Positions 48,043-48,990 of a stretch of DNA of 64,000 nt are shown in pieces. Every line of letters begins with the position of its first letter. Position 1 is the stretch's first letter. The stretch is from Escherichia coli (GTDB lineage: Bacteria > Pseudomonadota > Gammaproteobacteria > Enterobacterales > Enterobacteriaceae), in the NCBI RefSeq assembly GCF_024223415.1, contig NZ_CP100500.1. One strand, written 5' to 3'. The position numbers were made by a program, and so were the translations under genes. The notes beneath the pieces are model-generated. The model was not told the origin of the DNA. It ran no database searches and worked only from the letters and a program-made list of their open reading frames with translations.

Positions 48043-48312
48043 TTTCACTTTCTTGACTTTTATCCCTTCACAAGCGGTCGATGAATAGCTTCCTCGGCCG
48101 CCCTATCATCACATATCGCACTTTCTTTTAATCAACGCTTGAAGGTGTTGTACGCTTAGCATCTTCACTATCTTCGCCACCTCCTTGCTGAATTTTATAC
48201 AAATGAGCAATTTTTGATAGTTCAAAAATATGAGTAAGGCTAGGATAAAAAGAAATAAATTGCACTACCTAACGACACCGTAATATTTTCAATAATTATC
48301 AAGGAGAAGATC

Positions 48313-48789
48313 GTGCCGATAATATTTAGTCCAAATACATTAAAAATGGAACAATATCATGGCGACAGGGTTAAAATGGAGAAATACAATTCAAATCCAT
48401 TTCAATTCAATGCAGTTTATTATACAAATATTGATGATTTTAAAAACCTCTTAAAGGACCTTATTAATACCATGACGAATGGGAAAGTCGAGTTTAATTC
48501 TGAGCAATTATCTAAACTCATGGCAGAAATAACCTCTTTCGAGTCCAATCTTGATGGAACCCCCAAAGATATAAATTTTATCTCTCAAAATGAACATCTA
48601 CGCCAAACTGTATCCATCAGACAAGATGGGCTATGCACGAAAATAACACTCATTGTAGAAGAAACCCATTTTGATATAGACCATGGCGATATCTTACATG
48701 GAAAAAAATGGAGTGAAACAAGAGTGCTGCCTGAAGAATTAAACATGGCTATTGTTGTTGAAAACCTTAGAAACTTACCACACAGTTAA
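48313..48789 (+). CDS. Hypothetical protein, AT-rich, no recognisable domain
   Basis: 158-aa ORF in an AT-rich segment between yjcB and ssb; low-GC codon usage unlike neighbours; no motif recognised by eye. Confidence 0.5.
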   Translation: MPIIFSPNTLKMEQYHGDRVKMEKYNSNPFQFNAVYYTNIDDFKNLLKDLINTMTNGKVEFNSEQLSKLMAEITSFESNLDGTPKDINFISQNEHLRQTVSIRQDGLCTKITLIVEETHFDIDHGDILHGKKWSETRVLPEELNMAIVVENLRNLPHS

Positions 48790-48990
48790 ACAAAGTTGAG
48801 CAACATGAAATAGAGAGATTATAGAAGATATAAACCGGTACAAATTGCAAAATCAGATATTTTGTAAAATCCGGTATAATAAATTAATGAGAGGAACAAT
48901 CCTTGACTATTTCAGGAGCCGAAATTCATTTTCGACTCCTGGACGCATATGTTTCGCGTTGAGAGATCTCAACACAAAAGATGCAGATTC

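Follow-up and report, generated by a model that had tools for sequence, protein, structure and literature searches.

An AT-rich islet between yjcB and ssb of Escherichia coli, probably acquired and carrying an orphan gene

We analyzed a 64,000-nucleotide (nt) stretch of Escherichia coli DNA (contig NZ_CP100500.1, RefSeq assembly GCF_024223415.1), hereafter the window, in which the core genes yjcB (plus strand) and ssb (minus strand) converge on a 948-bp AT-rich spacer, the islet, that holds a 158-codon open reading frame (ORF), the orphan ORF. At a probability of roughly 60%, we read this locus as acquired DNA carrying a real orphan gene at hotspot 39, an intergenic site known for much larger islands. 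The RefSeq annotation of an identical locus is available in strain S51.

The islet and the spacer it replaces

The features of the locus are as follows (coordinates in the window):

47761..48042, plus strand: yjcB, the left core gene, whose TGA stop at 48042 is the left edge of the replaced DNA
48043..48990: the islet (yjcB-ssb spacer), 948 bp, AT-rich, substituting for an ancestral terminator spacer of ~98 bp
48043..48230, plus strand: leader A, the left part of the islet, conserved and moderately AT-rich, with weak hairpins
48231..48312, plus strand: leader B, a variable part that holds a 17-codon upstream ORF, a promoter-like pair and AAGGAG
48313..48789, plus strand: the orphan ORF, 158 aa with a GTG start, RefSeq WP_001121509.1, 'hypothetical protein'
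48401..48410, plus strand: (TTCAA)2 followed by TGCAG, the short in-frame state of a pentanucleotide tract
48702..48708, plus strand: a run of seven A (A7) within the orphan ORF
48913..48941: a hairpin with a 12-bp stem, perfect in other allele classes and with one mismatch in the window
48949-48982: a second hairpin near ssb
48991..49527, minus strand: ssb, the right core gene, with its TAA stop codon at 48991-48993
48993-48999: AGAACGG, a 7-bp repeat found at the ends of recombinase-borne islands

The islet has a G+C content of 34.9% compared to 52.8% for the whole window, bearing out a reading made earlier from the sequence alone (the sequence-only reading), which had described an AT-rich convergent spacer of about 950 bp. 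In 200-nt windows G+C is 0.305-0.37 over 48100-48999 and 0.51-0.66 in yjcB and ssb, and the gene for the orphan protein itself has 31-37% G+C within a 53% context. The long AT-rich leader that was also described (48060-48310) holds from about 48180 onward, with the first ~140 nt being only moderately AT-rich (0.435 for 48000-48199). Judging by base composition, the islet would likely be bound by H-NS, and the H-NS silencing suggested in the sequence-only reading would follow from composition in the same way.

In a K-12 derivative the yjcB and ssb stop codons lie 98 bp apart, enclosing a gene-free hairpin terminator region, in agreement with the sequence-only reading, which knew of no annotated K-12 gene here. 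This 98-bp spacer and that of the window have nothing in common; homology to K-12 ceases one base after the yjcB stop and returns at AGAACGG, the last bases of ssb, such that everything between the two stop codons is replaced. E. albertii, E. whittamii and three further divergent Escherichia genomes retain the short hairpin spacer at 78-94% identity, and because it is common to these outgroups we regard it as ancestral and the islet as derived. Other Enterobacteriaceae mostly carry short unrelated terminator spacers (about 65-180 bp), with Yokenella and Atlantibacter at 0.6-1.7 kb, and the orphan ORF is not encoded at yjcB-ssb in any Escherichia outgroup or other Enterobacteriaceae genome that was compared. 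A presence/absence survey found the islet in 22/5,426 complete E. coli genomes, with one chromosomal copy each and always at the yjcB-ssb site. As K-12, 99.6% of complete E. coli genomes and the non-coli Escherichia genomes all lack it, we have very little doubt that the islet is acquired, non-ancestral DNA, as the sequence-only reading had supposed.

Two observations concern the ancestral spacer itself. In E. albertii locus L013 and 'E. coli' SCPM-O-B-8794 (L014) it is stretched to ~235-280 bp by palindromic units (GCCTGATGCG...CGCATCCGGC) resembling repetitive extragenic palindromes or bacterial interspersed mosaic elements (REP/BIME-like), so the site also gathers small repeats. Additionally, a 9.5-kb contig labelled Flavobacterium paronense CECT 8460 (L011, NZ_JAUFQN010000013.1) carries a yjcB 99% identical to that of the window and a yjcB-ssb spacer with 100% identity to K-12; E. 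coli DNA has almost certainly contaminated the Flavobacterium assembly.

The orphan ORF, its alleles and its protein

An AAGGAG motif (48301-48306) lies 6 nt upstream of the GTG start of the orphan ORF and is conserved across alleles, being weakened to AAGGAA in the allele of strain N3. Among shuffled or Markov-generated islets, just 0.06-0.18% contain an open frame of this length (p ~0.001-0.002), and scanning the islet revealed no second conserved ORF beside 48313-48789. The islet exists in three allele classes: class I comprises the window and 19 other complete genomes at no less than 99.3% identity across the islet, class II, at 92.7% identity, takes in strain N3 together with numerous copies from drafts and metagenomes, and class III, at about 87% identity, consists of strains 06-00048 and GF4-3. 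All three classes have an open frame. When substitutions were placed randomly, it stayed open in 11% and 2.4% of trials with 47 and 83 substitutions, respectively (p = 0.11 and 0.024), and the persistence of an intact ORF through 47-83 substitutions in two independent allele lineages has a joint p of ~0.003. A 12-nt indel inside the ORF is frame-preserving, and in class III a +1 shift eight codons before the stop adds 35 residues. Across the C-terminal two-thirds the ratio of non-synonymous to synonymous rates (dN/dS) is 0.34-0.54 (Fisher p = 0.018, three-allele tree). Collectively, these findings argue that the orphan ORF is probably a real protein-coding gene, albeit a weakly constrained one.

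Divergence between allele classes along the locus is distributed as follows:

Leader A (48043-48230): 0.5-2.2%
Leader B: 7-12%
First ~35 codons of the orphan ORF (48300-48400): 17-30%, the peak
C-terminal part of the ORF: 6-10%
Trailer: 6-14%
ssb: about 1.5%

Within the N-terminal third, the non-synonymous rate is 2.5x the adjacent non-coding divergence (p = 0.004 to 9e-6). A short coding peak that decays in both directions would be the pattern expected of old, maintained allelic diversity with surroundings homogenized by recombination; alternatively, the peak may stem from a local mutational hotspot. Upstream, a 17-codon ORF (MSKARIKRNKLHYLTTP) at 48231-48284 is joined in frame to the main ORF by a 1-nt indel in N3-type alleles, for which gene callers consequently give 186-aa products.

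The predicted product is an 18.3-kDa protein with an isoelectric point (pI) of 5.3 and no hydrophobic segment (maximum Kyte-Doolittle 19-residue mean 0.38). Hydropathy and family searches agree in this respect with the sequence-only reading, which had seen neither a transmembrane segment nor a recognizable motif in the 158-aa ORF at 48313..48789. Codons ~1-58 are hypervariable and predicted to be disordered, and codons ~59-158 form a conserved alpha/beta part. Two AlphaFold2 runs yielded no confident fold, with a predicted local distance difference test score (pLDDT) of 52 (full-length protein) and 63 (residues 30-158), and produced the same order of secondary structure, namely a beta strand, two helices and five strands. 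Foldseek found nothing in AFDB50 beyond the protein itself and its 193-aa allele. We dismissed a resemblance of the predicted structure to Whirly/PUR-like binders of single-stranded DNA or RNA, attractive though it is beside ssb, as noise at such pLDDT values. A metallo-beta-lactamase (MBL)-like 'THxDxDH' string at residues 118-124 was ruled out as well, since other alleles have asparagines in place of its aspartates and a protein of this size is much too small. We take the protein to be cytoplasmic, with a conserved alpha/beta C-terminal part of ~100 residues and a hypervariable, probably disordered N-terminus.

No homologue outside E. coli was found among ~15 billion proteins. A word-indexed search of 5.8 billion protein clusters matched six clusters to the orphan protein, and a HMMER scan of 1.84 billion representatives recovered just two of those six together with a frameshift fragment and a TPR/AAA protein; all cluster members bearing a name are from E. 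coli. We discounted the TPR/AAA protein (P0007, E = 8e-5), whose similarity is compositional and lies over repeat segments. Searches of Pfam, NCBIfam, PADLOC, PHROGs and PDB sequences gave no reproducible match: a marginal hit to PADLOC PbeC (E = 0.0057) was dropped because four other allele sequences did not match it, and two families without an assigned function, phrog_5553 and phrog_18667, scored too weakly for use (E 0.01-0.7). Sequence-family searches likewise revealed no similarity to integrases. Comparison with 72,556 plasmids and 50,697 phage records gave no match to either the islet DNA or the orphan protein, so these searches provide no evidence for a mobile-element origin. The sequence searches confirm the orphan status proposed earlier.

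We compared the pentanucleotide tract across the window (48401-48410) and loci L007, L050, L052 and L054-L064. In the window, TGCAG follows (TTCAA)2; the class II form is (TTCAA)2 TTCAG, and among class II alleles the following unit numbers (n) were observed:

n=2: in frame, 158 aa
n=3: out of frame, 48 + 105 aa
n=5: in frame, 163 aa (inferred from protein sequence only)
n=6: out of frame, split
n=9: out of frame, split
n=11: in frame, 173 aa
n=17: out of frame, split, with the terminal TTCAG unit also missing
n=~20 (interrupted): in frame, 188 aa

Tracts with n = 2, 3, 6, 9 and 17 occur among class II alleles that are only 1-3 substitutions apart in 479 nt, and the tract must therefore change much faster than point mutation. 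The presence of n=3 in two allele backgrounds 13 substitutions apart suggests that it arose twice independently. With two units and a mutated third, the window allele is in frame and should be stable.

Other copies are interrupted by different means. Strain GPEC1446 (L045) carries the insertion sequence (IS) IS1 after about codon 11 of the orphan ORF in an otherwise identical islet, and its annotated product is cut to 147 aa. A 134-aa database variant (P0012), known from protein sequence, ends with 'HGKKME' just past the A7 run, which fits a frameshift in that run, and in L063, a class II copy, one additional base within the ORF leads to a stop after 16 codons.

Junctions at hotspot 39, spread and expression

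Hochhauser, Millman and Sorek (2023; PMC10121019, S1 Table) list yjcB/ssb as hotspot 39, mapped in 1,292 genomes and occupied in 38. Under their rule a site with three or fewer genes is scored 'empty', and the islet, which carries one gene, is therefore 'empty'. An 18-kb island with Detocs and a dGTPase has been described at yjcB/ssb (PMC11728103), and we found yjcB and ssb parted by larger inserts in about 435 genomes (about 8% of complete genomes). One example is a ~12-kb island bearing Avs4, tyrosine recombinases and an AbiGi-family gene (L042-L044 and L046; strains 21220, H106 and EC2); another is a >20-kb island with a type I restriction-modification (R-M) system and DprA-like and RecQ-like genes (L047, IPCEC48). 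Tyrosine recombinases adjoin ssb in both, and the Avs4 island retains the ancestral spacer on its yjcB side and has the 7-bp AGAACGG repeat at both ends. The sequence-only reading had pointed to the neighboring DNA-metabolism locus; the site is a documented hotspot for defence islands, with ssb relevant only as the 3'-end attachment site for integrative elements.

The ssb stop codon differs by occupant, being TGA with the ancestral spacer of K-12, TAG with both island types and TAA with the islet. The corresponding ssb-stop junctions read TTAGAACGG in the islet, CTAGAACGG in the islands and TCAGAACGG in K-12, such that the ssb-side edge of the islet falls on the same nucleotide as the island junction, immediately before AGAACGG. 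A second copy of AGAACGG was not found at the left end of the islet, where the ancestral 98 bp are gone, and BLAST detected no similarity between the islet and the Avs4 island. Neither terminal repeats, a target-site duplication nor a transposase was found that would identify the islet as an insertion sequence, miniature inverted-repeat transposable element (MITE) or transposon. An imperfect 10-nt direct repeat, CTTGACT(T/A)TT, is present at 48052-48061 and 48902-48911; its 850-nt spacing matches the net length by which the islet exceeds the ancestral spacer, and it is probably a chance occurrence in AT-rich DNA.

Comparison of the flanking DNA is informative about spread. The only complete genomes that match the 12-kb right flank of the window at 99% identity or more are seven in number, each with the islet. 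In further class I carriers, for example EC1515, the islet is 99.8% identical and the 12-kb right flank only 98.5%; between EC1515 and the window there are 5 differing sites across ~47,900-50,430, and divergence is 1.5-3% from 50,432 on. A near-identical block of ~2.5 kb within a diverged flank shows that the islet moved between lineages on a short homologous-recombination tract, so that its spread via the flanking core genes is established for two E. coli backgrounds.

Closer inspection of the transcription signals suggests how the ORF could be expressed. A terminator scan found no canonical terminator after yjcB, and because the orphan ORF has the same direction, read-through from yjcB into it is plausible. 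By eye, leader B holds a weak promoter-like pair, TTGCAC (48260-48265) and TAATAT (48281-48286), which a promoter scan did not report because the spacer is 15 nt. At the other end of the islet, the conserved hairpins at 48913-48941 and 48949-48982 together reach -40.9 kcal/mol (z = -6.6) on the ssb (minus) strand. No U-run follows the 48913-48941 hairpin on either strand, and the islet contains no canonical intrinsic terminator. The two hairpins replace the ancestral ssb 3' structures and form the new 3' end region of ssb, and probably that of the orphan ORF as well.

Elsewhere in the window, positions ~1-25497 (mdtO back through the phn operon) are inverted relative to the order in S51 and K-12, with a breakpoint at about 25497/25498. 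S51 carries two inverted copies of IS1397 (IS3 family), at yjdM/yjdN and yjcO/gltP, that would mediate an inversion of ~32 kb. The inverted segment also includes a non-K-12 sugar-utilization cluster between yjdP and yjcS (S51 annotation, L048 5789-14930; roughly 4300-13450 in the window) that encodes a hybrid sensor kinase, an ABC transporter, a D-lyxose/D-mannose-family isomerase, an aldolase, a kinase and a response regulator. At this position K-12 has its als/rpiB genes.

Competing explanations and known systems

Within the preferred reading of acquired DNA with a real gene, the likeliest history is that the islet began as a mobile element that integrated at the 3' end of ssb and was subsequently deleted down to one surviving cargo gene. 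We propose this relic history because the right edge of the islet coincides with the island junction, and rate it at not quite even odds. The islet was then distributed among E. coli backgrounds by homologous recombination, as shown for two of them, and the orphan protein would probably be expressed from its strong ribosome-binding site through yjcB read-through or its own weak promoter. As to function, the context prompts a doubtful guess at a non-essential factor, useful under some conditions, that acts in conflicts with phages or other mobile elements, in which the N-terminus would be the part under diversifying pressure and expression would be repeatedly lost or toggled through IS insertion, frameshifts and, in the sister class, the slippery (TTCAA)n. 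Quite unlikely is the fullest version of this idea, namely a working conflict gene (defence, anti-defence or self/non-self) with its N-terminus under diversifying selection and class II switched by (TTCAA)n slippage. If true, it would constitute a native simple-sequence-repeat (SSR) contingency locus in E. coli, inside a hotspot catalogued as 'empty'; K-12 has been reported to lack pentanucleotide repeats (PMC7015867), and the E. coli phase switches described in a recent review are invertible-element and methylation switches only (PMC11868660).

Several observations weigh against the preferred reading or its extensions. No remnant of an integrase, no terminal repeat and no trace of the ancestral spacer is left in the islet, and what speaks for the relic history is the shared junction, which selection for an intact ssb could itself have placed there. 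Between allele classes the whole-gene dN/dS is 0.58-0.79, not significantly below 1 (p = 0.14), and that of the N-terminal third is about 1 (0.69-1.15) and indistinguishable from 1. In-frame repeat lengths are not enriched (3/8 expanded tracts vs 1/3 expected), so the tract lengths are equally compatible with adaptive switching and with neutral slippage of a dispensable stretch. Lastly, the many disrupted natural copies suit a decaying relic as well as a switched gene.

Such a decaying relic, in which the ORF has lost, or always lacked, a selected protein function and the islet is a neutral passenger or a supplier of 3' ends and terminator structures for ssb and yjcB, is rather unlikely in our estimation and would mean that the open frame of the window has merely not been broken yet. 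It draws on these dN/dS values, the frequency of disruption (IS1, frameshifts and out-of-frame repeat lengths), the lack of a confident fold and the strong conserved hairpins by ssb, which provide a cis role independent of the ORF. However, it does not readily account for the constraint on the C-terminal part, the survival of the ORF in two substituted lineages, the frame-keeping indel alongside a retained strong ribosome-binding site, or the recent transfer of the islet between backgrounds with its ORF intact. De novo birth of the gene from foreign AT-rich non-coding DNA, as a proto-gene and not as the diverged gene of an unsampled phage, is very improbable: it would explain the absence of homologues, the low-confidence fold, the AT-rich composition, the disordered N-terminus and the near-neutral evolution of part of the ORF, but the 158-codon frame is common to all three allele classes, the conserved C-terminal domain has predicted regular secondary structure, and no non-coding precursor sequence is known.

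The sequence-only reading had proposed a stand-alone toxin, immunity protein or anti-defence factor, and the position of the gene in a defence hotspot, the small, acidic and fast-evolving protein and the recurrent on/off states, which would suit a costly gene, are in keeping with such a role. Nevertheless, we judge this decidedly unlikely, as the ORF has no adjacent partner gene and no toxin, antitoxin, immunity or defence model matched reproducibly, and anti-defence genes normally ride on phages or plasmids, neither of which yielded a match. Thus the earlier interpretation is partly supported, being right about an acquired orphan and finding nothing beyond context for the proposed activities. 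A non-coding functional unit, such as a small RNA, a regulatory 3' untranslated region (UTR) of yjcB/ssb or a binding platform in leader A, would be favored by the low divergence of leader A relative to the 6-31% of the remaining islet and by the conserved hairpins near ssb. It has hardly any likelihood, however, given that the islet has no Rfam match at E <= 1, that the folding of leader A is barely better than that of shuffles (z = -2.2), and that its divergence equals that of the neighboring core genes, which recombination running in from yjcB explains.

Taken alone, the window makes an ordinary addition to the E. coli pan-genome, one further orphan gene specific to certain strains. Defence-hotspot surveys that score sites of three or fewer genes as 'empty' will nonetheless overlook single-gene occupants such as this one. 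Three deeply diverged alleles, a divergence peak over the first ~35 codons and recent transfer form a combination usually tied to conflict-type selection, and at 477 bp the gene is cheap to test. The (TTCAA)n tract of the sister alleles is a natural expandable pentanucleotide repeat and could model repeat-mediated switching in E. coli.

Compared to the islands of hotspot 39, the islet occupies the same intergenic site, has the same ssb-side junction nucleotide and likewise rewrites the ssb stop; unlike them, it lacks a recombinase, a recognized defence gene and the second 7-bp repeat, has lost the ancestral spacer and shares no sequence with the islands examined. The class II alleles resemble the SSR contingency loci of Haemophilus, Neisseria and Campylobacter (PMC11868660) in that a 5'-proximal intragenic tract varies and places the frame in or out. 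In contrast to such loci, the window allele with n=2 is below the ~5 units needed to slip, and the orphan protein is predicted to be cytoplasmic.

Salmonella pathogenicity island 4 (SPI-4) of Salmonella enterica is a ~24-27-kb island for an adhesin and type I secretion located between ssb and soxSR/yjcB. The islet is similarly foreign AT-rich DNA at the equivalent position by ssb, whereas the orphan protein has no homologue among the Salmonella proteins of the databases searched. The lineage-specific ORFans of E. coli, as reportedly described by Daubin and Ochman in 2004, are said to be short, AT-rich, fast-evolving genes without homologues. The orphan gene is alike in being short (158 aa), AT-rich, confined to the species, fast-evolving, patchy in distribution and annotated as a 'hypothetical protein'; it differs in standing alone in place of an intergenic terminator between core genes, as opposed to within a prophage or larger island, and in having three deeply diverged allele classes at one locus. 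Collectively, these comparisons place the islet gene as an uncharacterized lineage-specific ORFan in an already known integration hotspot.

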